A DNA stretch of 64,000 bases from positions 29,760,001-29,824,000 of the forward strand of contig CM114271.1 in assembly GCA_050084515.1 (NCBI GenBank). The letters are read 5' to 3'. Positions 57 through 61,436 of this stretch are shown in pieces. The position numbers were made by a program, and so were the translations under genes. Source of the DNA: Blasia pusilla. Lineage: Eukaryota. The notes below the pieces were generated by a model. That model worked only from the letters and a program-made list of their open reading frames with translations, was not told the DNA's origin and searched no databases. Each line of letters begins with the position of its first letter. Within the stretch, counting starts at the first letter, position 1.

Positions 57-2541
57 TTGGAAATTGACAAAACGTTAGATATCCATCGGATGATCAACGA
101 GGCTTTCCATACCTTTGACATGGGACAAGTCCAAGATCTGCCAACAGAGATACAATTAGATGCTAGAATCGAAGATGAGGATCAAGTGCCATTTGAGATG
201 GGGTTAGACGAATCTGAAAGGGGAGGTGGTGAGGAGGAATAGGCTACACAGTCTAAGGTGTTAAGGGATGCTTGTCAACCCTTATTTACGGGTTCTAAAA
301 CTAGCAAACTTGCATTCACCATGTTGTTCTTAAACATATGTGGTACTCATAATGTCTCAAATATTGATGTGGATGAGATCCTAAAATTCTTGGCAGTGCA
401 AGTCATGCCCAATGAGAATGTGGTTCCAAGAAACCACTATGATGCCAAAACATTGATCAATAAGTTGGGTTTGAATTATATTCAAATTCATTGTTGTCCC
501 AATGGTTGTATGCTCTTCAATGGAGAGCATAAGGACTTGTTGAATTGCTCAAAGTGCAACTCCCCTCGATATAAGGTGCAAGGGAAAACAAAGATTGCTA
601 TAAAGGTTCTCAGACACTTTCCAATTATCCCACGGTTAAAACGTATGTATAGATGTAAGACCATAGCTGAACTAATGAAATGGACATCAGAAAACAAAAG
701 TAGCAATGGTAAAGTGCGTCATGCTGGAGATTTTGGACAGTGGAAAGATATAGATGAGCGTTGGCTAGAGTTCATGAACGAGCCTCGTAACTGTCGATTA
801 GGGCTTGCTTTAGATGGAGTAAATCATTTTAGGGACAAGAGTTTAGTTTGGTCAACTTGGCATGTTATTTTCGTGAACTACAATCTTCCACCATGGTTGT
901 GTACAAAGAAATTCTTTCTCCAATTGGCTTTGATCATTCTTGGTAAGGAGTCAGTGTCTTCTCATAACTTAGATGTGTATTTAGCTCCACTTGTAAACGA
1001 GTTTCAACTACTTTGGAAAGGAGTTGTTGCATATGATAGTTTTCTTCCTGAAGGCCAAGATAAGTTCCTTCTTAGAGCCATGATCATATGGACTATTAGT
1101 GACTATCCTGGGCTAGGTGTGGTCTCTGGCCAATGTACCAAGGGAAAACTTGTATGCGTAGTGTGTGGACCACAAGTAAATTCATATTATTCTGAACCTT
1201 TGCATAAGCCAACATTTCAAGGCCACCGACGGTATAAAGATAGGAATCATCCTTACATGAAGATCCAATTTGCGCATCTTTTCAATCGACAGATTGAAAA
1301 TTGTCGAACGCCCAAGCGCGTGACCAATCATGACATATTGAGATGGGCTGAAATGAAGAAGATATTTGATGAAACGCCAAGACCTAGGCACAAGAGGTGT
1401 GAGCAGGTTCTGTTTGATCCCTACAAAGTGTATGGGGTCCAACGAAAGAGCATTCTATTCGAACTGCCTTATTGGAACGTGAGTAAAACCTATTGAAGAT
1501 GCTTGCATTTTTCCATACTTGTCCACACTTTCCATTTCTTATGGTAATTGTGTTGGTTCGATCACCTACTAGTTTCTTTTTTGAGTGCATGGATGAACCC
1601 GAAATTCACATTATTCCTTCTTGATAATTTTTCAGGATTTATTGATCCGTCATACCCTTGACATTATGCATTGTGAAAAAAAATATTGCGGAAAATATGT
1701 TGAAAACCTTGTTTGGTATGAAAAACAAGGACTCGGTTCAAGTTAAGCAAGACATTCAGGTTAGGGGAATTAGACGTCACTTGTGGCTTCAAGCGCATCC
1801 TAGTAGAGCATCTATCAAGTTAAAACCAAAGGCAGATTACCTGCTTACCCCTGAGGAGGTTAAGATATTTGACGCTAGGGTACAAAGTCTAAAAGTTCCT
1901 AGCAGTTATGCTGGCGCTTTACAAAATCATCTGCTACGGAAGAATGTGGGTGCATTTACCATGACCATCATATTTTTATGCAACAACTCTTACCATTCTT
2001 TTTGCGGGGACTCTTGAAAAGCCCAGTAAGGATGACTATCATGCGGATGTCCAGAATTTTTCGACGCCTTTGTGTTAAGACATACAACCCTGAGGATTTA
2101 GAACTCTTAAAAGAAGACGTTTCTACCACGCTTTGCCTCATGGAGATACACTTTCCCCCTTCCTTCTTTGATGTGATGACTCACCTCCTTGTCCATTTGG
2201 TTGAAGAGCTTGATATTTGTGGCCGTGTTCCATGTCGGTGGATGTACCCTGTGGAGAGATATTTGGGTGTATTGAAAAATTATGTCAGATCACATGCCAG
2301 ACCAGAAGGTTGTATGGCCGAAGGATATCTACTTGATGAAGCTTTTGGTTTCATCACCGAGTACATGCAAAACTATGATGTCATACGAACAAGAGTTTGG
2401 GATGCGAGCGAGGACGAAGGAATTATTGGCCAGGTGTTAGAAGGTGTCGGGACCAAGCGTCAAATGAGCTCTGAAATTCTTGAAGTGACACATGCATATA
2501 TGCTCCACAATAGTGAATGTTTCACAATATGGTTGGAGTAA
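57..2541 (+). pseudogene. CACTA TnpD-type transposase (Transposase_21 and DUF4218-like regions), with stops and frameshifts
   Basis: Motifs IHCCPNGCMLF, LRHFPIIPRLKRMY, LGLALDGVN, YNLPPWLC, WTISDYPG, SILFELPYW, FPPSFFDVMTHLLVHL, RWMYPVERYL and PEGCMAEGY. Confidence 0.92.
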
Positions 2542-9300: not shown

Positions 9301-10368
9301 GGAGTAAAGCGTACTTACAGCTTACTCCAGGTTTAGTATTGGTGGCGTGGCATGCAAACTGGGGTACAATAGTTTGTGGCCAGATATATGGTATGTGACA
9401 GAGTGCAAGCATCCTTCAATGCTCCCTCTTCGTAGTTACATCCTTTGCCGATTATGGGTTTAGGTTATTGGTGGAGTTTAGACTTTGCGGGACCTTTGCC
9501 ATTGACAAGGCGTCATCATAGGTACGTGTTGGTCATGGTGGAGCATTTCTCCAAGTGAATAGAGTTGGTGGCACTACCAGACAAGGCAAGCAAGGGAACA
9601 GCTTATGCGTTTCTAGATTGTGTGCTTAGTCACTTTGGTGCACCGGCGGAGGTGTTGAATGACCAGGGTACCGAGTTCAGGGGAGAGTTTCAGACCTTGT
9701 GTGATCACGCACTAATAGATCACTGCACCACGTCCATAGATCATCTTGAGGCGGATGGGTTGGCGGAGAGAGTAGTACAGACGATGAAGAGAGGATTCCT
9801 CAAGTATGGCTTGCAGCGGGGACAGTTGAGGGAGTGGGACCTATAGTTGCTATGGTTGTCTATGGGTTATCGCTTTAGTCGGCAAGCATCCTTGGCGTCC
9901 TTTTCACCATACTTTTTGCTCTTTGGGAGAGAGCCAGATTTACCTGCAACTATTGGACTTGACATGGCGGAGGTATTAGATCTTGATGATCAAGATGTGT
10001 GGGTACAAGTGTGTTCTCAGAGGGCGGAGATTTTTCGTAGAGTTATGCCTATGGCCTTTGAGAACTTAGCTATTGCTCAGCATAGAGATACATTGAGGTA
10101 CACAACTATTTGTGGAGGAGGTTATTCTCTAGGGATTAGGAGGCTTCATCATGGAGATTACGTGTATTTACATCAGGCGGCACCCATGACCCTAGATGTC
10201 ACTACAAGGCGCACGATCCTACGTGTGCGCGAGGTATTACCGACCAGAGTCCTCATGTTGGAGGGACATGATGGTATGGTTTGGAAGGATCATGTGCGCA
10301 ATTATGCGCCATGTCATCTTCCGAACGTAGACGAGACAATGGATCTAAGCTTGGCAATTGTACTTGCA

Positions 10369-10518
10369 GGCTTGAGGTGTATGTTTTGTGGATCTGCGAG
10401 GGATGCAGCCACCATGTTGGTATGTGATGGTTTTTCTCGAGGGTGGCATATGTCATGTCTGACCCCCCCTCTTGATGTAGTTCCCACGGGACCATGGATG
10501 TGTCCGAGATGTGTATAG
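10369..10518 (+). other. PHD finger at the integrase C-terminus
   Basis: CMFC-x11-CDGF-x3-WHMSCLTPPL-x2-VPTGPWMCPRC fits the C4HC3 pattern, with the 4th Cys changed to Phe. Confidence 0.88.
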
Positions 10519-16323: not shown

Positions 16324-19300
16324 ATGCCACCTCTGTTGGCTAACCGTAATGACAAGTCCATGTGCGACCGTCTTCTGGTCATGTGGACAAAAGAGGTAAG
16401 ACTGTTCTCTTCACAGTAACTTGAAGATCGTCTGAAAAAAGACTCTGAATATTCCCACTTTACGCTACGTTGGACTGTTAGACTAGTCTGTAACGTTATG
16501 CCTTCGTGGCTCCATCTTGGCGCTGCCAAATTGGTGCAGGTACTTGGTAATTAGTGTACCGGTTCGCATGGAGAGAAAAGCCCGTAAATTCAAGCTGTTG
16601 TAGCGTTGATGATCACTTTATGTCAGACCAAGGCATTTTTCGGGCATTTCATGCTGAAACGACCAGATCACCCGCTACATTTCTTTCGGAGGGTGGATTC
16701 ATTCAATCCAGCAAGTACTAGATATCGTCGTACGCATTGTTTCCAGATCTTCATAGTAAATTACAGTGATAGTGCATTATCATCGTAACCATTCCTCATG
16801 TTGAAGGACTGCATAGTGAGCATGGCGAATCATTATCTCGGCTGAATAGATGAGTTTAAGGCACCGTGGTTGCAAGATTACCGATGAACTATCCCTACTT
16901 GTTGCAGAGAAAATAACTATGAAAGCTTAACTACGGCGAAACCAAGTTCCTGCTGTTAGAATTTTCTAGAATGGTGCCCGTGTTTCACCTACCATAATTC
17001 AGAGCATGGAAAGATTCTGGAGTCGAGGAATGCCTTGCCCAAGACTTCTGTTGTCGACAAATGATAATTTCGTTCTCGTCGCTGTGGAAGCAACTGGTTA
17101 TCGAGACGTTCGGTGGTTGTATCATGGATCTTTCTGCTGCTCCTTTACAGAACTTTGCTGCCTTCTGATTTATCTAGCCTTGCATTCTAAGAAGAGGTGG
17201 CAAGCGTTTCGTATGTTTAGTTGGAGCATCGAGATATGGAGCACTTCAATCTGTAGTTCGGGCTGAGTGCCACTTTTTTTCTGGATAATCCTGGGCAGAC
17301 AGTAATAGGGAATAGATAAGCGTGGATCTTTCTATGATTTCCACTCGTATCTTAATAACTTCCCGGAAACGTCAATTCAATAATTCAGTTCACAATAGAG
17401 GTAAACCGATCAATTTAAAGAGACCAAAGTTCGAGGTTCGAGAGCTAAGTTTCCTGGTAAAGCTCAAGTATTAAACGCAGTGGACAGAAGAAAATTGCTT
17501 CAAGCGCCTTGGAAGGTGCCTGGATGATTATTCCTGTCACTACTATCAGATCTTGCCCACCTTACATGAATTAGATATTCAATTACGGTGCGAAAATTCT
17601 CCGGGGTTTTGGAAACCGTTCCCTCGGCTGGTAAGATTTCGCAATAATTTTTCCTCGTAGAACATTCTGGCCTCAGTCTTCGCCTAAACACCTTCCTGTT
17701 GGACAGAAAATTTTCTTGCCCAGAATGAAGTTGAGCCGTGGAGGCAGGTACATCGCGAACTCCTTTCCGGCCGTCTTGACATGGTGATTCTTACTATTTT
17801 CGCATTCGTCCATGCGTCTTGCAGGAAGATGAGATACTGCGAGATCAAGTGAAATTGCATGGAATCGACAAGTATTTTCCGTTTGCTTCCACTTCCATCG
17901 CCTTAACGATATTATCTATTTACTCTTATTAATCCAGTGCTCTGCGATTGCTTGGATTCCATACTGCCTTCCATGAGTCCCTTTTAACCTTCGTATATTA
18001 GTTTCGATTCGCTGGAGCAATAGTGTTTCTCTGTCTTGACCGTGTGAGGAAGTTCATCGAAGTCTTTCTCCTTCTGGTTCTTCCCTATCACTGCTGGACA
18101 GGTCAAATGATTAGCCGTGGCGCCTACAGTTTTATGCCAATTGTTCATGTTAACCTGCGCATTAGTAGCCTTCAGAGGATTTCATCTTTCCTCCACTTTG
18201 GATAGCAACAGAAGTTGTTTCATGAAATACCGCGTTGCAGTGTATCTCCATCGGAGTATTAAATTTTAAGATAGCATTTTTCATGTTCCTGCTTCTTTCT
18301 TTTGAAATGTAGATCGTCGAACGAATGGGGTCAGCAGATTTTGCCGTTACACCACTTCCTAACGTACGGTGTCTATCAGGTGGGCAAAGATCGCAACACA
18401 GCTGTGTGGTAAGACAAGCAGACAGTGCAGGCGCCGGTAAGATGGAGAGCCCTCTACCTAACATATTCCTGAATCTCGCCATCCATCGATTTACTGTTGA
18501 CGTTTTGGAATGACTGAAAGTCGGAATCTTCCTCGTATCTTTAAGACTGCTAATTATAGACTTATTTGTGCCGTGCATGTCTATGATCAGGCTCATCTTG
18601 AAATTTCAAAATACTTTGGGATGGCCTTCTTATTGTGTGCATACCATTCCCTGAACATAAACTAACTTTTTACAACCGTGAAGGTGGCACATGTTTCTGA
18701 ATGTGATTAACAAAAGGGGCGGATGGTCAGCAGACGAGGATAAGCTTCTCCTTGAGGTGATGGGGCGCGACAGCTTTTGTTAAAAAGATTATTGAGAGGA
18801 TTTTCTAAAGATAAACTCTTGTTACTTTGCGAGTTGGACTGATATTCCCTGCTCACCTTGTTTCTCATTCGTGGTTCCTCATGAACGATTGTTATCAGGC
18901 TCACAAGAAGTTTGGCAATCGATGGACCGAGATCGCAAAGAAACTACCGGGCAGGTACCCGACTCGACACGTCACAATGCATGGATAAGCAGTCGTAACA
19001 TAATTCTGTAGGTCAAATTCAAACGGACCTCTAACAGCTGACTTGCAGAGAAGGGCTTGTATTTGTCTTTCAAATAGCATGTATGTACAGGTACAATGGA
19101 GTCATAGCAGCGGCTCTTGGTGGAGTGGACGTCAGGAGAAACACCTTGGAATGAAAATGATTCAGAAAGACAGTGAATCTTCAATATTGTTGACATTCAA
19201 CCGTATACATTAGATTCAAACTTTTGAAAAATTGAGGAGTCGTATGCAGATAGAAATACTGACACTGCTGGCTCAAAGTCTTTCGATCTTGATGATGAAA

Positions 19301-22300
19301 GAGGGAACAATCTATACCACTCTAAGGCGGTTGAAAATATTTGTGACAGAGATTGAGCCTAATGAGAACTTATGATATCCCCTGATGAAAAGTAGAGATA
19401 GTAATGTTGTCATCATTGACTATTTTAAGAGCTGTGACTGCCTCAAACAGGCCCTTGTAGGCATAGAGCCTGAAACTGACATCATAGCAGTAACTGGAGG
19501 CTAGAGAAAGTCATCAATTACATCGAGTTCATTTAAGGGCGTTTACTTATTTCCTTGACTATAATTTGGAGGTTTTGAGGAATCACTAGAGGAATTCCAT
19601 TTGAGCTCTGTGTTAGATGAGATGAAACTGTTGGATAAACAGGATCTGGTGGATAGAATAGGATTTACCAGTGGAACCGTTCGTGAATGCTTCGTATGGC
19701 AATTGGAATTAGGCCTTATGATGTTGGGTCCATGAATGCAGAACGGACAATGCTGTGAAGAATCGGTTCTGCGTACTTTGCAAGAAACAAACGAAGGAGG
19801 CGGAAGCATGTCCTGCGCAACGAAATGTGGATGGTGGGGGCCATGATGCCAAGCAGCAGCAGCAGCAGCAGCAGCAGGAGAGGAGATTCCAGGAGTCCCA
19901 AAACCTTATGCATTGTGGTGGCAGCGTGAGTAAGAAGATGCGGTAAGATATGGATTTTAACGAGTTCCTTTGTGTGGATGTAGAATTGGAGCTAAAAACC
20001 TTTGTCATGGAGACCTAAATCACCCCTGAAGTATCCCAGATGAAGTTTTGGTCGATTGACCTATCAGGACCAGCAAGCTCTTCAGAGTTTTTGATTTTCG
20101 AATGCAGCTCAGACTTAGATTTTCATGTTTAACAGGATGGAAGCACATCTGCATAAGAAATCACCAGAGTCTGCTCTACAAAACGGATCACTCGAGGAAA
20201 ATTTGCAGCGATGGAGAGGGCTTAATTCTACAGAAATGCTTACAGACACTCTCGTCCAGCACAGATCTCTGGATGGATGCCTACAGCCATGGCAGTCGTT
20301 GCAGTCAGACTTTGTGCGCACTTGTACCCCCCCATTCCAAAATTCAGAAGAAAATGGTCATGTTTGGAAGCGAGGTCCAGTGGATGGGAGTGATGACACA
20401 CTTCACCCAAGGACACCGAACAAAGGGAATCTGCAACACTGGGAAGGATCACAGTCACGTGGAGAAACCAGTGTCTCAAAGGTTCATGAGAACTTACTCC
20501 AAGGAAACTCACAAACCTCAACGGCCTTGGAATCACAAGTAGGACCAATGAGCCCTTCTGACCACCCCAAACATATCCAAGACAACCTGCAGCATTGGAG
20601 GTCAACAACAGGTGAAGTAAGTGACGATTTTATGTACCAACAAAGAGGATTGAAGAAAAACATTTCCACATGGAGCCGTTTGAAAATGTCTGATACTGCT
20701 AAAAGACATTCTTCTGAGCAAAGGCAAGTTGATGAATTGGCTCAGTGGGGGAAAGGACTGCATGTTAAGGCCAGGATGTGTAGCGATCCCTTCAAGCAAA
20801 GGCAGAAGGACGAAAACCTAAACAATTGGGAGCAAAAATCGGAAGACTCTGTGAATGCTACCACAAATCAGCAGAGACCTGTTGATGAAAACCTACCACC
20901 TCTGAGTGAAATGGATTCCATCACTAACGTCTATACTTCTGCTCTTAAACATAGCGCAATGGTTGGTGTCACTCAGAGATGGTCCACTGTCCAGTTTGCA
21001 AGCCAAGGTGAGAAGCTCCAGCTATCTACTGGAGATGATTTGCAAATCTGTTATCTCTCAGGGGCTAATGACGGCAATGAGAAGAGTCCCCATCAGAGGT
21101 CCACTGAAACCATGCATCAATGGCAACGGTGGAACCATTCCTCTGACCAAGGAATCCATAATCCTGCGGGCCATCACACATCTTTAGGGTACAATGCGCA
21201 GGTGGACGAATCACAACCTGAGCATTCAACTGACAACAATCAATCTTGTCAACAAGTTTCAACACGACAGCTGCCAATGTGGGCGAATTCAAAGTATCGA
21301 AGGACGTTAGGCACTGCAGTTCCGCAACAGCTGGACAATCATAAAGTTAATGAATGGAGACCTTGTCCTGGGGGTCCAGGATACTCGGAGCACTCATCAC
21401 CTTTGGATGGCGGGCCCCATCCGTGGGACGGATTGGAGGATGTCAACTGTTCAGCCCCGCTTCTGAGCATACTCAACCGTTTCTCAGGTGGGGAAACACT
21501 AGGCGTTCTAGAGTAATTTTTCGACACTCGAGTTTCGAGTATAGCTCCTCAAAACAAAAGCTGCAAAGTCGTTGGAGTAGACATCGGCGAGGAAGATCTT
21601 TTCTATCAAATTGTCCACTGGGTTTTACGGACACTTGCATGAAATTAGATATTCAGTTGGTGTAGTTTAGTAAGAATGTTGGTTCTTTGCCCAGTAAGTT
21701 ACTCCTAGGATCATTTTCTTGGACAACAAATCAATTCATTCATGCATTGGCTTGGATTGTCCATAATTTAGGTCTTGAATCCAATCAGACTGCTCAAGTT
21801 TTGAGTCCCCAAAGTCGGAGTCACGAAGGACTTTCTCCACTACCGCAGGATGGATCTTGGAAGGTCAGCTTATCAACCCAATTATCTCTAGTCCATTACA
21901 AGAAGATCGTATCGAGAGGGAAGGTCTTATTTCGGGCAGGGCTTGGCGTTCTAATTGATGTCTACCTCGGGAACCCCCAAATTGTTGCTCCTGAAAACAT
22001 CAATTTTGTCCAGCCGGTATAGGGGCTAGATAACTCAAGAGTTTATTTCTGGTAGAATAGTCTGAGGGACAGTTATCTGATCGATGAGCTTCTCTTTGTG
22101 GTAAAATGGGCTTGGAGCCGTAATTCTTTGAAGAGGCTAGCCAATATTTCCATAGGAATTTAAAGTCCATCAAATTCATATGTAGCGCATTGACGAATTG
22201 AACTCCCTCTGTGATGGAAAAATTACAGCATTTTTTGCATACTATTCTTGCATTCTTCATCGTATTGAGTTCCAAGTTGTAACATTTGCGAGTATTTGTG

Positions 22301-24673
22301 ACAGGGAGAATCTTGGCCGGCGAAGCAGTCCGGCGAAATTCATGAAACTGTCGTGGACAAATTTGTCTTCGCACCAATAGAACTCTCTGTAAACGATCAA
22401 ATCGAAGGCCGTGGGTGAGTATGGTTCACAGCTAACCCACTTTAATCTCATTCTGTTGATCTTCTTTCCTTCTCAATAATCTGTGCGGATTTTGATAAGG
22501 TGAGTCAAACAGTCTCAAGGATGATAGATAATCGAGTATCGACTTCTGCAAGTGGGTCATACTTGGATGTCCAAAACATATGGAATGCCACATGTTAAAC
22601 TACATGTTTAGTCATATTTTGGTATATTAGAATTCAAGCAGACATGTGATCATGTCACCAAGTGCAACTCCTCGAATATAGAGTGGGCTCACATGAATGG
22701 AGGCTAAATGGCAGATTTGAGGTCTGAAAACTACGAGTCATGAATTGAGTTGATTATGAAGATTAATCTCAATCGATAATCTGGGATACCATCCGTGTCG
22801 TACTAACACATAGGCGTCCAATGATCAGAGCACCGGTCGTAAATAGTCGAAGTCACTTAGATAACCCATGAAACCCGTGTCTTGTAGATTTAATTTTCTT
22901 TGGGTGTCCTGGATGGTTGTCTCCACTCAGCGACAGAATTCAGTTCATTATCTGGTTGTCTTTCTTAAGAAGCGTGGGAGTGTTTCTTCAATTTTCTCGC
23001 TCTTCACGTCGCGTGATTCACTGTGCAAAATGGGTCCAGGGACGTTGTGTGCTTTAATGAGCTTATGCTAGAAGAATCAAAGGAGAACGATTCCACGACA
23101 GTACAAGAAATCTGCGCTGCAAGCATCCATATAGATCAAACATCTAGGCCTGAAATTCCAGCGTGGAAGTTGGTGACTAACTTGAAAGACAAGCATATAC
23201 CCAAGAGTGAATCGGAAACGTCAGCTGATTTTGGCAGCAACGGTGAGACGTGCAATGGCAGATGTGCCGTTCAGGATCAAGGTATTTCACAAAACCTGGG
23301 GACAGTCTTAGTTTCATGTTAATTGAATTTAAGTCGCATTCAAAATAATTATTGGTCCATGTGTTCGTACGATCTAGGCCTTCAGACAGAATGGACTTAA
23401 AGTTTTCTTAGTCCTACCCATCTGCTACATAAGGAATTGTTGCAACGCCAAGAGCACCTTTTCCTGGCACTAGGAAGAATTGAGTACTTCGAGTTAAATC
23501 CTGTATATGCTCCTGACCTAGATTCCGGTTTCTTTTGGTCGTACACTTAGAATGTGAGATTTCTTTTGCAAATTAGTAAATATAGAAAAACGCCGACATA
23601 TGAAGGGGATGCAGAAAAAATGGATGGGACAACCCATTCCAGCCATGAGTAGATGCTTGGAACTGGTTTTGGTGTAGGGTGCAGGTGGAATAGCGTGGTT
23701 TTCCTTTGCCTTAGTGCATACTTCAACCATGCGTATCTTATCAGCAGCGCCATTAGTCCTTGATTGTTTTATTGAGTATTTCTTTACTGAAGTAGGCCTT
23801 TCTGAGACCAAGGAATGTTGGTTGTGGCGGATCTGGTACTTTAAAAAGAATAGTACAGAGCCTCTTCTGGCCACTTGGACTGTTACACCCGAGATTTCGT
23901 CTAAGCAGTCATGTCTGATAAATTCTCAACCCTCGGAAAGATAATCGCTCCAGTTCGCTTGAAAATGAGCGTTAATCTTTGTATACACGAGAAAAAGTGG
24001 GAACGTGGTTCATCTTCCTCGAAGTTTCCAGCTTCTTGGTAGAGGGCTGAAGGTCATTGACTTCTTGTGTATTGCAGCGGAATCAGTGAAGATGGAAGGT
24101 CAAACATCTGGAGTGTCAGACTCTCCACCTCCTGGAATCGCTGCTGATGTCTTTTCACCAACTCAGATTACTCCCAGAAGTCATGTGACAATGGAGTCCA
24201 TGCCTAGCCCTCAGTTTTCAGAAAGTGTGAGTGCTGTTATTTTATACACCCTATGTACATTCTAATGGCGGCAAGTTGGGTTACTTCTTTGTGATTACGA
24301 TCATAGGCTGTCAGTGTTGCTTTAGTGAGGAGCGTCATTTCGAATGAATCACTGTCTGGCCAGAGGGTCAAGAAGATCCATCGCTGCTCTTCCCATTAGA
24401 ATCCTCTTACTAGTTCATTCTAAAACTTCCAGTACGATGACCAAGTAATCCAATTTGTCTCTCTTCGATGTACAGGAGAAAGAATTTCTGCTAAGCACAC
24501 TGGAACAGTCATCAACTAGTTGCTGGCTAGGCTCTCCGTTGCGTCCCACCTCCCATTTCAGCAAAGTTCGTACTGCACTCATTGATATCCGTTATGATAC
24601 TCCAGCTCGGTCACCCCTGTCCTCCAGCCTCTTGCACCAGTTTCAAGTTTCGGAAGGCCCACGTTTGGCCTAG
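16324..24673 (+). CDS. FLP: FOUR LIPS/MYB88-like atypical R2R3-MYB transcription factor. Predicted exons 16324-16395, 17825-17871, 18380-18436, 18684-18756, 18899-18954, 19742-19942, 20136-21487, 21772-21863, 22305-22414, 23040-23281, 24078-24226, 24476-24673
   Basis: Phase-consistent GT-AG splicing gives [100 protein letters not shown]. The C-terminal FSPTQITP...PSPQFSESEKEFLLSTL motif matches FLP/MYB88. The start codon and exons 8-10 are less certain. Confidence 0.88.
19853..19876 (+). repeat. (CAG)n microsatellite encoding poly-Gln just after the MYB domain
   Basis: Run of CAG triplets in exon 6. Confidence 0.9.
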
Positions 24674-29430: not shown

Positions 29431-32400
29431 TTAGCGGACTTGGACAATGCCGGCACTGACAAGCTTCTGAATTTTACCCATGACCATGGGATTTTTCATG
29501 TGCTCCTGTGCAGCCTTAGGGTTTTCCTGGAAGTCTGTCAAAACCTGCACATAGAAATAGAAATCGGTGAGTGCCTTGCATGGAGGTACAATCACAGATG
29601 GTTCACAAGATCCTCAGGGTTGATTGCTTATATCTAAGCATGGGGAATGAGGAATCAAACCTATTAAGACCTGAGTGGAACCTCAGGCAATGAACTACCG
29701 CAACTGAAACTAAGAAAATTTGGGTCAATCAAATGGCAGCCTTTCTAGAGGTTAATTCAGCCCTTCATTGAAACCGTATAAATACAAACCTGGCGCATGA
29801 TGGGGTCTGATAGTATTCCTTGAATCTCAGGGTCTTGCATTGCTTTGCCCTTCAGCACAAAACAAGTAGAAATTCATCAAACAACACAAATAATCTTGAT
29901 TTACTGGATTCAAAGCCTTATCTCCTAACATCAAGGACGTTGCTCACAAACTGTTTGGAAGTGACAGAAGAGATCCTATTCAGTAAGGTAAGGTACATAT
30001 GAGTTTACCTGTCTCTCCTTTAAATCCTCAGCGCTGATATCACCTCTGTTAGTTTTGTTAATTTGATCTATGCATCTGCCAAATTCCAGCATACCCCAAG
30101 TTAACTCAACACAGCCTGCCACAAGCACTTTTCACTCTCATACGTTGAGTTGCTTTAAGGCAAATAGAAATTCAGACATAAACTGCCAGCTCTTTCTGAA
30201 ATCTGTAGAGACGAGAATTAAGACAAACTATGAGTATAAGCTTGAAGTCTGTCCAAATTATCAAATGTGAGCACCTACACACTATCTGGCTGAAACTCTT
30301 ACAAGGCCTGCCCTGTTCAATCAAGACCTGACGAGTTCAACTCCTTAGACATGCCTGAAACGTTCATAGTACATGCCACAATCACCAGAAAATTTCCCTC
30401 TTTATGGGTGTTTGGTGTAGAGTCCATGACAACAACTCCTTCCTTGTGGCTCTTGGTCCTTACGGACTACACTAGACAGTTGAAATAACCCTGGATTTCA
30501 TCAAAGTACCATACCTGCAAGGTTTGGGAGTAAGAAAGTGAAGCTCACCTGCGAGCACCATCCAGAAGCTCCTGGTTCTCAGGCTCATGCTTTAGTCCGG
30601 TCTGAAGCAGACAATTTCACGGATCAGATTGAATTTACAAATATTTCTGGAAGATTCCATCTACCCCAATTCCATCCTATTCATGAGGGATATGGCAGCG
30701 TGTAAAGGTTCTACTCCAAAGGTCACATTGAATAGTTTATTCTTGACGTGTGACTCAGCCTGAGAATAATTTCACTCTGGTGCTGGATCAAATACCACTG
30801 TTGCGATAACATGGAGCAGACTTACTTGGTAGGTTTCTAAAGCCTTATCATACTCCTTCATAAAAAATTGGACAGTTCCTTTTCGTGAGTAGCCCTTCAC
30901 GAAAGTGGGGTCTAATTCAATAGCTTTATTTGCATCCTTCAGACCCTCTGGCAGAGCCCCAAGTTTCGTGTAGCATGCTGCCCTGTTGCTGAAAGCCTTC
31001 TCATTCACAAAAACGGTTCACTATCAGTCAGTACAAAGGAAGGGACCTCAATGGTTCCACCACAAGCAGTGGATTGACAAGAGCAACCAAACCACAGAAC
31101 TAAAAAGTGAAAGATCTGAAACTTCAAACAAATACCTTAACATCACGAGGATTCCGTTTCAAAGCTTCTGCATAGTGTTTGATAGCTTCAGGATATTGGT
31201 CCTTCTTGAAATACTCATTACCTGCGTGTGGGCAGATGTCCTTAATTCATTAAACTAGAATTGTTGCAAGTCATGCCATCACTCTGACGTGACATTACAT
31301 GAGGAATATTCTAAATACTAAATTATGTAGATCAGCATTCTACGATTAAGTAAACCCTGCTATCCATTGCATTCACAACCTCAATGCTGAAGTGCACACT
31401 GAATGAAGACAGAAGCTTGCCTTTCTCTCTCTCTTCATCAGCTAGTTTAGGATTAAAATACTCTTGTTGCTCCAATTCCTTCTTTGTTCTCTCTGCATCA
31501 TTTAACCTCTTCAGTGTGTCGGGGTTTCGATGCTCTGTCAGTGCCTTATTGAAAGCCTCGATCGCTATATCATAATCTTTGGAGGATTTGGCTAGCTTGA
31601 CATAAGCCGTTCCTTTCCTGGTAAGGGCTCGAGAAATCATCTTAAAATCCGCATGAACTTCTCTACCTCGCTCGACGGCCTTGTCACAGTCCTTTATGCA
31701 ATCTTCATACTGCACCCAAAGGACAAACGTCAAATGACTTTCACAGCGGATTACATTCGTTGTAGCCTTCCTTGGTACGATGATGGTTATCCCTTGGTTG
31801 AACAAAAGTGGTCAAATACCCATAAACGAAAGAGAGCACTCATATATAAAGTCCAACCAAACCCTCACATTAAGCCCTGGAAGTTTCATAATGCAACCAA
31901 TCCCCACTACGAAACACCTAGGACAATCCAACTTTACTACTCCCCGAAAAAACTCTTCCCCACCAAAACGATCCTCACCTGGCCCATCTCCAAATACACG
32001 GCGGCCCTGTTAGTCAGGAAGGAAATGTCTTCGTCATTCAACTCCCAGGCTTTGCTGTAGTGCGTGATTGCTTGATCAAATATCTTTTTCTTGTAGAAAT
32101 CATTGCCCAATTCCTTCTCTTTGAGAGACTGGGATTTCCGCTCCTTCTTCTCTTTCTCTTCATCATCAAGCTCCTCCTCCATTGGCTCCGTCTCAGGCTC
32201 TGGTTGCTTAGTAACCTCCGGCTCCCTAGGTCGTACTTCAGGTGCAGTCCAAGGCGACGACGACGGCCGGGGAACTTCAGGTTCATCGTCCCATTTCCCA
32301 GTTTCCATATCTTCAGCAGAAGGGGTTTGGATATTAACCCCTAATAGGACTCCCAAAACCTGCACCATTCGAGGATCTCCGATGAATTTATTAAGACTAG

Positions 32401-32914
32401 CAGGGCTTCTCTGCACTTCCTGAAGCATTTTGACGAAATCCGGTTGTGCTAAGAATGCTTTTGTTCTTGGATCAGTCTGAATCTTCGCCCACACGTCCGG
32501 GCCCTGGAATATATTGCCAAACGGAGAAGCCCCAGCTCCCACAGGGGGTGGTCGAGGTTTGGAGGCTGCAGATTGGGCATCGGCAAGGCCCGATTTCAAA
32601 CCTTCATTACTTGGGTCGAACTCCAGGCCCTTCTTGTATGATGTCACGGCCTCATCATACTGGTTGAGGCCAGAGTAGGCAGCTCCAAGTCTGCTGTATC
32701 CCTTGCTCCAGTCGGGCTTCAGCTCTACGGTTTTCTTAGCATCATTCAAAGCATCCTCGTATCTCTGGAGAGAAGCATAAGACGCAGAACGATTGGAGTA
32801 AAGCACATGATTGTCGGGTGCGAGACTGACGGCCGTTGAGAAGTGCTCAATGGCTTCTCCAAATCTACCTGCTGAGAAGGCTGCATTTCCTTTCGCTTTC
32901 GCTTCGTCGGCCAT
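29431..32914 (-). CDS. HOP: Hsp70-Hsp90 organizing protein (HOP/STI1). Exons 32914-31979, 31709-31421, 31221-31136, 30996-30826, 30601-30549, 30075-30009, 29849-29790, 29544-29431
   Basis: [14 protein letters not shown]...LYSNRSA (TPR1), DP1, [13 protein letters not shown] (TPR2A), EEREKGNEYFK (TPR2B), and the end [27 protein letters not shown]...[14 protein letters not shown] (DP2). All splice phases are consistent. An alternative in-frame ATG lies at 32926. Confidence 0.95.
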
Positions 32915-33468
32915 TCCTAGCACCATGTATGTGTATATCTACCTGTCGACAGTCACAGAACAATGCAAAACTCCGTTAGAGTTTCGTGCACTTTGCCGAG
33001 GTCAGGTTGACGTCAGAGAGGGTGATTTAGGACAAATCATTCAGCCAAGGAAATCAATCCGGTGATAAAATATAGAGGCCAGCTGATATCCACTGCCAGA
33101 TTATTTCTAGCATAAGGATATCTTGCCGAACGAGACCTAGACTTCAATTCCACCACGAGAAAAACTTTCCTCAAACCTGAGGATTGTGTTCCACTAAGAC
33201 AGTTACATTGAGAAAAAGTGGATCCAACCACCTCGACTCTTAACCGAAGACAGTAGCAGCCCAGAGTCAGCTCGGGGAACCATAAACTGAAGGCATTCAG
33301 AAATCCAAGTTCCATGGGGACTTTAAAAAATGAGATCCCATGACCTAAACGAAGTCGATACGCCCAAGATCGGCTGAGTGGAGCAACTATGACTCGATGA
33401 CATCTAACAAGCGCCAATCGAAAATGACCAATCAGCATAAAGCTCCTTGTAAGTCTTTTCACTCGGCT

Positions 33469-33471
<3 letters not shown>

Positions 33472-33523
<52 letters not shown>
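33472..33523. repeat. (GA)n microsatellite upstream of the HOP start, probably in a 5'UTR intron
   Basis: Perfect AG dinucleotide run. Confidence 0.95.
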
Positions 33524-33526
<3 letters not shown>

Positions 33527-34095
33527 CTCTACGTAGCCTTTACCCAATATCGGAAACTCGTACCAACTAGAAACAAGGCAACTTATCACCATACTTCAAC
33601 ACCAAAAGCTGACCTCACGACCTTCTCTCTCTCTCTTCCTCACTGTAAGACCAGACGCTCATTTCGGGAAACTTAGAACGCACAATCAAAAGCCGCCAAA
33701 AGAAAGCTAGGATTCTCTCCGCACACATCTTACCACTCTCCGGGACGACTAGAAATCCAAGAAACGTGTGAGAGATCGGACCCACCAGACAGTGCAGTTA
33801 GAGGATCAGAGCTTAGGAGAAAGATACAGCAGCAACGCAACACCAGGTGATTTTGCGGAGCTGGAGATCGACATAGAATGCAGAGCCACCTCCTGCGAGG
33901 GGAAACTTCAACGGGTACGAGCAGGTTCCTCGTATTTGTATGGCATAACAGTCGGAAATAAATGGTACCAGACAAGCTAGGCCAATGTGCAAGACCTCAA
34001 ACACCTTGCAGAACTAAACCAGCCTCCTCCACTTCGCCTGTCTTCCACTCTCTCTTTCTGCTGCTTCTAGAGAGCACTGTGGAGTGGGGGCGGGC

Positions 34096-59989: not shown

Positions 59990-61436
59990 CCTTTGGTGGA
60001 CAGGATTTTTGCACAAGCTCGTGAGATGGTAGTATTTGTGAAGACTAGAACTTGGGTGATGGCCAAATTCATGGAAACAAATCCATTGAAAAGACAATTG
60101 TTGCTTCCTGCAAACACACGTTTGCCACAAATTTTATCATGTTGGGACGCGTCTTAGAATTGAGGGAGGCATTCCATGCCATAATTTCCACCAATGCTTT
60201 TAGGAAATATTTAAATGGCAAATATGCGAGGCAAAGGGAGAAGGCACGAGAGATTGAGACTACTGTGGCCAATTAGGATTTTTGGATCGAAGGTGAGGAG
60301 TTGTTTGCTATGGCTCAACCAACCATTATTCTGTTGAGAGAGTGATGGTCATAAAGCAATGACGGGGCATATTTATTGCGGTATTTTTGAAATAATGGAA
60401 GAGATCCGTTCTTTTCTTGTAACTCCATGGCCCGGTGTGGATAGAAGGTGTCTCGATTATTTTGTCATAATGTCTAGAGCTACGAAAATGGTCGATGTTA
60501 TTTCTAGGCGATGGGCACTTATCCACAATAAGTTACATGCAATAGGCTACATTCTCGCCCCTTACAATCTTCTTGGTAGTGTTCAAGACGTCACTTCAAA
60601 TGTTGAGTGCATGAGAGATTTTAAATAATATCCGAAACTTTATGCCATTTATTTAAAATCTGAAACTTTAGGGGGTGTATGGCCTCAATGTCACCGAGAC
60701 TAATTCTTATGTGGCTACTTGCTTGCGAGAGTTGGGCAACATTGTGAACCATCAGGAACTATTTGTGGATGAGTTTGGTAGGAAAGTTGTTGATTCACTT
60801 GGCCCCTCTGATTGGTGGAGCATGTGCGGTCAAGGTGCATCAACATTGCGCTCTGTGGCGAAGTCCATATTAGCACAAGTGGTTTCATCTTCTTCAGCGG
60901 AGAGAAATTGGAGTACTTATGGTTTCATCCACAACAAGCATAGGAATAAATTGACCAACGAGCGTGTCAAGGATTTGGTGTACATCTACACAAACTCACG
61001 ATTTGGAAACAAGGGTGTTTCTCGCAAATCAAGACAAACGCTCTTGTACGAGCAATACTTTTTTGAAAGGGATGGACAAGAAGAAGCTAGAAGGGTAGTA
61101 GAAGATGGCAGTGAATCTAGCTTGCATGCAAGAAACCGTGATGGTAATCATGAAGATAACCTCGACTTGCAAGATGAGGAACTAAAAGAGGTGGATGTGA
61201 TATGTGGAATTCATGGCATCGAAGGGAGGGAGGATACTCATATCGGCAACACAGAAAAATTTGACTCCGAGGGGTTTGGAAGAGACGAAGATGATGCTGA
61301 AATGGAACATTGGATTCAAGAGCACGAGGAAGAGCAACAACGGAGGACTTCAAGAGAAGCGAATCTCCCCGGCACTTCTCCTAACACAACCTACGACCCT
61401 ATGATTCTTGCACTAGTAGGAGTTCAATCCTACTAG
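59990..61436 (+). pseudogene. hAT transposase pseudogene (DUF659-type, C-terminal dimerisation domain), N-terminally truncated
   Basis: TRFATNFIML, DFW, RRWALIHNKLHAIGYIL, and WWSMCG...LRSVAKSILAQVVSSSSAERNWSTYGFIHNKHRNKL...DLVYIYTN, followed by an acidic tail. Confidence 0.9.

Follow-up and report, generated by a model that had tools for sequence, protein, structure and literature searches.

A worn tryptophan-repeat array encoded by exon 7 of a predicted FLP/MYB88-clade gene in the liverwort Blasia pusilla

Introduction

The transcription factors FLP and MYB88 are textbook examples of regulators that act on the final division of stomatal development. The clade to which they belong, the FLP/MYB88/MYB124 clade of R2R3-MYB proteins, is diagnosed by the sequence GRTDNAVKNRF at the end of the R3 recognition helix, in which phenylalanine stands in for the third tryptophan. 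The seed-plant and fern members that we examined are 473-532 residues long, carry two to four tryptophans outside the MYB domain and show no regular tryptophan lattice. Here, we describe a gene of the liverwort Blasia pusilla that lies in a 64,000-nt stretch of contig CM114271.1 (NCBI GenBank assembly GCA_050084515.1, positions 29,760,001 to 29,824,000, forward strand). The whole stretch is referred to below as the window, and all coordinates are counted from its first nucleotide. Like other members of the clade, the predicted protein has two MYB repeats, an R3 that ends in NRF and both of the conserved C-terminal boxes. It differs from them in that the short, variable linker of the seed-plant and fern proteins is replaced by a 450-residue tryptophan array, which is encoded by exon 7 (20136..21487, + strand).

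Several described kinds of protein segment invite comparison with this array. Platforms that offer tryptophans to pockets on a partner are built from isolated, spaced tryptophans in disordered polar regions, and the array resembles the GW/WG Argonaute hooks and the W-motif arrays of GW182 in being a long, polar and probably disordered region with many isolated tryptophans. However, its tryptophans almost never adjoin glycine and have instead a conserved leucine at position -3 and a conserved glutamine at position -2. In MYB/SANT repeats, the tryptophans are 18-20 residues apart within a helix-turn-helix fold. Acidic activation domains favor acidic residues on the N-terminal side, and the less hydrophobic among them depend on having their hydrophobic residues gathered on a single helical face, as described in PMC8137143. 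Measured against domains of the Gcn4, VP16 and p53 type and the grammar of Sanborn et al. (2021), the motif in the window is similar, being acidic just N-terminal of leucine and tryptophan that share one helical face in a disordered context. Known activation domains, in contrast, have one or a few such clusters, whereas the array has 17 evenly spaced, individually conserved units; its charge bias is modest and its activation capacity is putative.

Results

Exon 7 lies within an open frame of 465 codons (20119-21516, + strand), whose translation is designated P0001. Tryptophan occurs in P0001 at residues 32, 58, 83, 108, 160, 185, 210, 237, 288, 335/338, 388, 413, and 436, and Leu 262, within DENLPPL, occupies the tryptophan position of its unit. 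All 14 tryptophans fall on one lattice with a period of 25.4 residues, which divides the exon into 17 units (Rayleigh R = 0.96). In a scan of periods of 8-60 residues, 5000 random placements of 14 positions never gave a value this high (random maximum R, 0.83). Tryptophan ends 13 of the units and is missing from the four found near residue 133 (HENLLQG), at residue 262 (DENLPPL), near residue 313 and near residue 363. The initial annotation of this locus had listed ten copies of the motif, all of which are present in the translation at the spacings it reported, and the periodicity it proposed stands out clearly against random placement. Its array was correct as far as residue 288 but stopped too early, as the tryptophans at 335/338, 388, 413, and 436 are also on the lattice. 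It had further described the repeat as no longer obvious in the DNA, with the frame still open and the tryptophan register kept. This agrees with the present analysis, in which Tandem Repeats Finder returned no rows for exon 7 at a score of 30 and all 465 codons were open. The sole trace of a DNA repeat consists of three 20-nt copies at 20717, 20795 and 20870 (the last ending at 20889), spaced 78 and 75 nt apart. The tryptophan of exon 8 is located exactly 50 residues past the last one of exon 7 and is therefore still on the lattice; the counterpart of this gap in the leafy liverwort Calypogeia is 71 residues.

With exon 7 alone as query, a scan of 1.84 billion representative proteins produced just three matches at E <= 0.001 (P0003, P0002 and P0004). 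P0003 is an 848-residue protein recorded at NCBI as "unnamed protein product [Calypogeia fissa]" (E 1.4e-38). P0002 is an unnamed open reading frame (E 2.5e-32), and a longer member of its cluster, P0040, contains the whole array; a search for longer homologous proteins found none among 6108 candidates. Besides these two orthologs, the only match was P0004, a hypothetical protein (KAI4302595.1) of the angiosperm Melastoma candidum (E 2.7e-4, 36 bits), which has about ten near-identical 25-residue units (IPPVLRPVENLAQWKALKAKGSRSR). P0004 shares the ENLxQW core and the 25-residue period with the liverwort unit but comes from an angiosperm, lacks a MYB domain and consists of young, near-identical repeats. 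Because its score sums one weak match over many copies, the likeness is probably the result of chance or convergence.

A three-way alignment of the array from the window, Calypogeia P0003 and P0040, covering 452 residues of the window protein, showed 31.8% identity between the window and Calypogeia, 32.5% between the window and P0040, and 60% between Calypogeia and P0040. Against this background, 13 of the 14 window tryptophans were invariant in the three orthologs, compared with 104 of the 452 residues overall, and the next most conserved residue was leucine (14 of 37 invariant). The array thus appears to be old and under selection. Two of its units, those near residue 133 and at residue 262, lack tryptophan in all three orthologs, and the sequence DENLPPLS is identical in all of them. 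The wear therefore dates back at least to their common ancestor, and the array has been maintained ever since. Each of the other two orthologs also has a lattice of its own, with a period of 24.6 residues in Calypogeia (R 0.90) and of 25.2 residues in P0040 (R 0.85), and in neither case did any of 2000 random placements do as well.

The residues that flank the tryptophans are repeated too. When the tryptophans of the window protein were kept fixed and all other residues were shuffled 1000 times, none of the shuffles reached the observed similarity among flanks (-1.5, vs. -11.6 +/- 1.3 in the shuffles), and the same test gave 0 of 1000 in Calypogeia and in P0040. A hidden Markov model (HMM) of the unit, built from the Calypogeia and P0040 copies, scored 18.0 bits on the window protein, above the maxima obtained with 500 full shuffles (8.2 bits) and with 500 shuffles in which tryptophan was fixed (13.8 bits). 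We give preference to the within-protein flank test because the HMM includes orthologous units.

Outside these three orthologs the array fades. Among named proteins, the best relative other than that of Calypogeia is Marchantia MpR2R3-MYB3. It aligns colinearly across the array and keeps the remnants SEETLKLW, AENLEQV, VESLQQS, and DLLTWWEERD, but most of its units are without their tryptophan and no significant lattice was detected (equalled by 604 of 2000 random placements). Likewise, no lattice was found in the tails of one fern and three angiosperm relatives from the FLP clade (two to four tryptophans each), a sample that leaves out Arabidopsis FLP and MYB88 themselves. The view that FLP and MYB88 have no such repeat therefore holds for the relatives sampled. 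The further proposal that the repeat is old, lineage-specific and selected is supported by the near-invariance of tryptophan at 32% identity, with the lattices of the other two orthologs and with the decay seen in Marchantia.

The unit itself was characterized from 42 tryptophan-anchored segments, representing 14 lattice columns in each of the three species, with doubled WW and WQxW counted once. Its core reads L-(D/E)-(D/E)-N-L-Q-x-W. Tryptophan was present at position 0 in 40 of the 42 segments, and was preceded by glutamine at -2 in 24, by leucine at -3 in 20 (any hydrophobic residue, 32), by asparagine at -4 in 9, by an acidic residue at -5 in 18 and at -6 in 14, by leucine at -7 in 14, and by a basic residue at -9 in 12. 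Position -1 was mostly Q or R, and farther upstream the residues were mostly Q, H or P at -11, Q or H at -10, and Q, R or K at -9. A hydrophobic-x-x-W pattern surrounds 10 of the 14 window tryptophans, and the core hydrophobic residues are at i, i+4 and i+7, that is, on one face of a helix. The intervening sequence is polar: S, Q, N, T, G, and P make up 208 of the 452 residues (46%), whereas I, L, V, and M account for 74 (16%). Tryptophan is the main aromatic residue of the exon (14 W vs. 6 F and 6 Y).

AlphaFold2, run on the three-sequence alignment, returned a mean pLDDT of 35.5 and a pTM of 0.15. Every residue scored below 70, and 452 of 465 scored below 50; the best-scoring block was a short helix over LEENLQRWR. 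Exon 7 matched no Pfam family at E <= 10 and no PDB sequence at E <= 1, so that no known domain was recognized in it. No usable match was obtained from the ESM Atlas when it was queried with P0003. A motif scan of the array found no LxCxE, no EAR motif (LxLxL or DLNxxP), and no consistent LIR or cyclin RxL pattern. The 25.4-residue period, the lack of Pfam families and the absence of a predicted fold ruled out the assignment of the array to the MYB/SANT repeats.

The affiliation of the gene was examined through its MYB domain and its C-terminal half. With P0003 as stand-in for the window exons, Pfam placed PF00249 in two stretches (E 6e-35) and also reported PF13921. When P0003 was used as query, the next best matches were MpR2R3-MYB3, a Ceratopteris protein and angiosperm proteins, one of them named MYB124-like, followed by MYB3R and c-Myb proteins. 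The string TDNAVKNRF can be read in the window and recurs in the fern and angiosperm clade members that were fetched, while Marchantia has NRY. A MYB-domain tree of 36 rows was inferred by quick search, with Calypogeia representing the window gene and with ordinary R2R3-MYBs and MpR2R3-MYB18 left out. It contained a 13-row clade of Calypogeia, MpR2R3-MYB3, the fern Ceratopteris and ten angiosperm rows (SH-aLRT 100), with 19 MYB3R and c-Myb rows falling outside it, and within that clade Calypogeia and MpR2R3-MYB3 were sisters (SH-aLRT 96). An alignment of the C-terminal halves with eight fern and angiosperm rows put the "...SWK" of the window (...DGSWK, in exon 8) and of Calypogeia on the AWKELQDFL box of the clade (...AELLSSLA...AWKELQDFL), which is weakly conserved in liverworts. 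The same alignment located the SPxFSxSE(K/R)xFLL box in the window, as SPQFSES continued across an exon border by EKEFLLSTL.

Given the position in the MYB tree and both C-terminal boxes, the gene is, as judged from its predicted product, an R2R3-MYB member of the FLP/MYB88/MYB124 clade, and it appears to be the ortholog of Calypogeia P0003 and Marchantia MpR2R3-MYB3. The initial annotation had called it an FLP/MYB88 homolog, and the 61-92% identity of its MYB exons to P0003, together with the clade support and the two boxes, argues for that name. A different Marchantia gene, MpR2R3-MYB18, has been named the FLP ortholog (PMC6174852), and the window gene may be either a one-to-one ortholog of FLP or a liverwort paralog. 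Stomata are described as absent from liverworts (PMC8324025), and because of this the known role in the guard mother cell cannot apply here. Expression data for MpR2R3-MYB3 report enrichment in antheridia and also increased levels in 13-day sporophytes (PMC6174852).

In the fern and angiosperm proteins P0006, P0007, P0013, and P0016, the two main tryptophans outside the MYB domain, one in the AWKELQDFL box and one in a W(R/E)QPDL-like site, are separated by 44-48 residues. This gap is close to twice the liverwort period; the points are too few for a test.

The exon model is based on a tblastn search of the window with P0003, the best full-length homolog, and on splice sites then read from the DNA; all exons are on the + strand. 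Exon 1 (16324..16395; 79% identity to P0003, DNA read) contains the start codon and the beginning of R2 (MPPLL...MWTKE) and has the donor GTAAGA. Helix 1 of R2 (EDEILRDQVKLHGID-K) is encoded by exon 2 (17825..17871), which was placed by tblastn with P0003 and by reading of the DNA, is bordered by the acceptor cag and the donor GTATTT, and ends in phase 2. R2 continues in exon 3 (18380..18436; WAKIATQLCGKTSRQCRR-R; 90% identity, splice sites read), and its end is joined to the start of R3 in exon 4 (18684..18756; WHMFLNVINKRGGWSADEDKLLLE; 92% identity). R3 extends through exon 5 (18899..18954; AHKKFGNRWTEIAKKLPG-R; 90% identity) into exon 6 (19742..19942), which carries the end of R3, TDNAVKNRF, with phenylalanine for the last tryptophan, a run of nine glutamines and a basic patch, KKMR, before the donor CG/gtaaga. 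By tblastn, the MYB exons 1-6 are 61-92% identical to Calypogeia P0003. The glutamine run corresponds to a CAG run at 19853-19879, just past the MYB domain, where Calypogeia has AKQQLLEG only. A second strong donor-like site, GC/GTGAGT, is present at 19926-19931, 17 nt upstream of the modelled exon 6 donor; its use would remove the KKMR patch, which the Calypogeia protein retains.

Exon 7, with its 17 units of about 25 residues, ends with the conserved sequence PLLSILNRFS-G. It is followed by exon 8 (21772..21863; G-LESNQTAQVLSPQSRSHEGLSPLPQDGSWK), which has a weak tblastn match (E 1.1) and was placed by its fitting AG/GT sites and phases and by the fern and angiosperm alignment, in which it aligns with the AWKELQDFL box. 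The borders of exons 1-8 are canonical GT-AG with compatible phases, exon 7 being in phase with exon 6, which ends at 19942, and with exon 8, which starts at 21772; the coordinates and the exon number that the initial annotation had assigned to exon 7 therefore hold. From the 465-codon frame, the fitting splice sites and phases, and the location of the array inside an annotated Calypogeia protein, we conclude that exon 7 is a real coding exon of the predicted gene.

Three further coding stretches were found downstream. The first (22981..23274, candidate exon borders) is colinear with residues 621-723 of P0003. The penultimate exon (24078..24226, borders approximate; 50% identity to P0003) ends in the clade box ...SPQFSES, and the last exon (24476..24673; 68% identity) runs from EKEFLLSTL through IDIRYDTPARSPL to a stop codon at the same end as in P0003. 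Within the first of these stretches, which is colinear with one continuous coding part of P0003, an in-frame TGA occurs at 23014-23016; the downstream exons are undamaged. A reasonably sized intron that takes out this codon was not found, and the exons between 21864 and 24077 did not chain into a clean model. The TGA may represent a nonsense allele, an error in the assembly or a splice form that escaped notice.

Elsewhere in the window, two open frames at 243-2541 (+) match Transposase_21 (tnp2, E 1.7e-59) and DUF4218 (E 8e-37) and represent the remnant of a CACTA/En-Spm-type transposon. An open frame at 9847-10518 (+) ends in a PHD finger (E 1.7e-9). Open frames at 31937-33528 (-) match TPR repeats and the STI1/HOP DP domain (E 8e-21), indicating a HOP/STI1 co-chaperone gene, and a hAT-family dimerization domain is predicted at 60672-61436 (+; E 2.3e-10).

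Discussion

The gene family to which the window gene belongs is already known, and the repeat region is without a described counterpart in the literature that we searched (supplements excluded), where MpR2R3-MYB3 is known from expression data. Judging by its composition and motif grammar, and given that no fold is predicted, the array may plausibly be a series of interaction or activation motifs. We lean, by a little, toward a specific form of this idea, in which the array is a disordered, multivalent surface for cofactor docking or activation, made of acidic-amphipathic tryptophan motifs. Exon 7 would encode an intrinsically disordered linker of about 450 residues that joins the DNA-binding domain to the conserved C-terminal boxes. 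The tandem array in it is ancient and has 17 units, each about 25 residues long, or 19 counting exon 8, with the motifs parted by polar spacer. Each unit would act as a short linear motif that folds into a brief amphipathic helix upon binding of a partner, and together the units would serve as a multivalent platform on which a transcriptional co-regulator docks, most likely through an activation-domain-like surface that combines acidic residues with tryptophan and leucine. The number and spacing of the tryptophans would then set avidity. In support of this are the lattice shared by the three orthologs, the likeness of the flanks beyond tryptophan, the conservation of tryptophan, the evidence that exon 7 is coding, the low AlphaFold confidence and the lack of a known domain. 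The unit motif also matches the grammar of acidic activation domains as set out in PMC8137143.

Several observations weigh against the docking and activation surface. The units are only mildly acidic (54 D+E vs. 44 K+R in exon 7, a net charge of about -10 over 452 residues), and position +2 is basic in 13 of the 42 segments, a weaker charge bias than that of classic acidic activators. Arabidopsis FLP is described as mainly a repressor of cell-cycle genes that acts with RBR1 and restricts division (PMC8324025, PMC7527812), so that an activation role does not follow from family membership. The low pLDDT values are weak evidence for disorder because the AlphaFold alignment held only three sequences. 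The TGA at 23014-23016 may put the full-length product of this gene copy in doubt. Finally, a fuzzy activation domain does not need strict spacing of its units, which hints at something more specific. In a further reading the array would be a molecular ruler, in which the 25-residue spacing is itself selected and the array grew by repeated duplication of the ancestral AWKELQDFL box of the clade, shared from fern to angiosperm and placed on the lattice in exon 8, until up to 19 copies were presented to a periodic or oligomeric partner. We regard such a ruler as possible but rather unlikely.

Even spacing also bears on two other explanations. Aromatic residues set at regular intervals in a spacer rich in Q, S and N could drive self-association or condensate formation rather than contact with one defined partner, as in a sticker-and-spacer polymer. 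The predominance of tryptophan among the aromatic residues, the 46% of S, Q, N, T, G, and P in the spacer, the even spacing in all three orthologs and the lack of a predicted fold are as expected for such a polymer. However, pure stickers have no need of the specific flanking motif L-D/E-D/E-N-L-Q-x-W that has been kept, and the density of valences is low (14 stickers in 452 residues); we consider this explanation unlikely, with some chance of being right. The same strict lattice, with few indels at 32% identity, could instead reflect a new folded repeat domain, a solenoid or similar, that is beyond the reach of AlphaFold with three sequences and buries its tryptophans as MYB/SANT repeats do. 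No other residue is conserved nearly as well as tryptophan (13 of 14), a pattern typical of residues in a core. Arguing against a fold are the 16% of aliphatic and 46% of small or polar residues, a pLDDT below 50 for nearly the whole frame, and the absence of any Pfam or PDB match. Moreover, tryptophan has been lost from four units without loss of the frame, and from most units in Marchantia. We therefore hold a folded domain to be improbable.

If the array is disordered, its many isolated tryptophans, more than 10 residues apart in a polar region, might be inserted into the tryptophan pockets of Argonaute, CCR4-NOT or a similar partner, as on a GW182-like or Argonaute-hook-like platform. Glycine, however, adjoins only one of the 14 window tryptophans (WG), one of 15 in the Calypogeia array (GW), and none of 16 in P0040, and the preceding positions are hydrophobic (-3, 32 of 42) and glutamine (-2, 24 of 42) rather than glycine or serine. 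Membership among the GW/WG Argonaute hooks proper was rejected, as the glycine context that defines them is absent, and a platform of this general kind seems highly improbable. A last explanation would be that the frame and its periodicity are left over from a dead tandem repeat, or that the stretch is intronic. The eroded DNA repeat agrees with this, and the in-frame TGA downstream could mean that the copy is decaying. It is contradicted by the ortholog lattices and by the conservation of tryptophan among orthologs, with the 465-codon frame kept in three species at 32% identity and 13 of 14 tryptophans invariant, as well as by the fitting splice sites and phases and the annotation of the stretch as coding in Calypogeia. 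Neutral decay is accordingly given next to no weight here.

The finding has several implications. A member of the FLP/MYB88/MYB124 clade has been retained in liverworts despite the absence of stomata, and in at least three liverwort lineages its protein bears a large, old repeat region that is absent from domain databases. The tryptophans of the individual units have stayed in place, and of the other residues two thirds have been replaced. In a region of this kind, single residues and the distances between them can be tied to function, and ideas on multivalent motifs, activation-domain grammar and aromatic patterning can thus be tested on a natural example. For annotation, the finding shows that exon 7 is coding sequence, and trimming it away as low-complexity sequence would be a mistake. 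The array may also lead to the partner of the conserved tryptophan box common to seed-plant FLP proteins. Should the molecular ruler prove true, it would offer the first handle on the binding partner of this conserved, uncharacterized box of FLP/MYB88 proteins, and it would show how a stomatal cell-cycle regulator was rebuilt in plants without stomata, perhaps for the development of the antheridium or the sporophyte.

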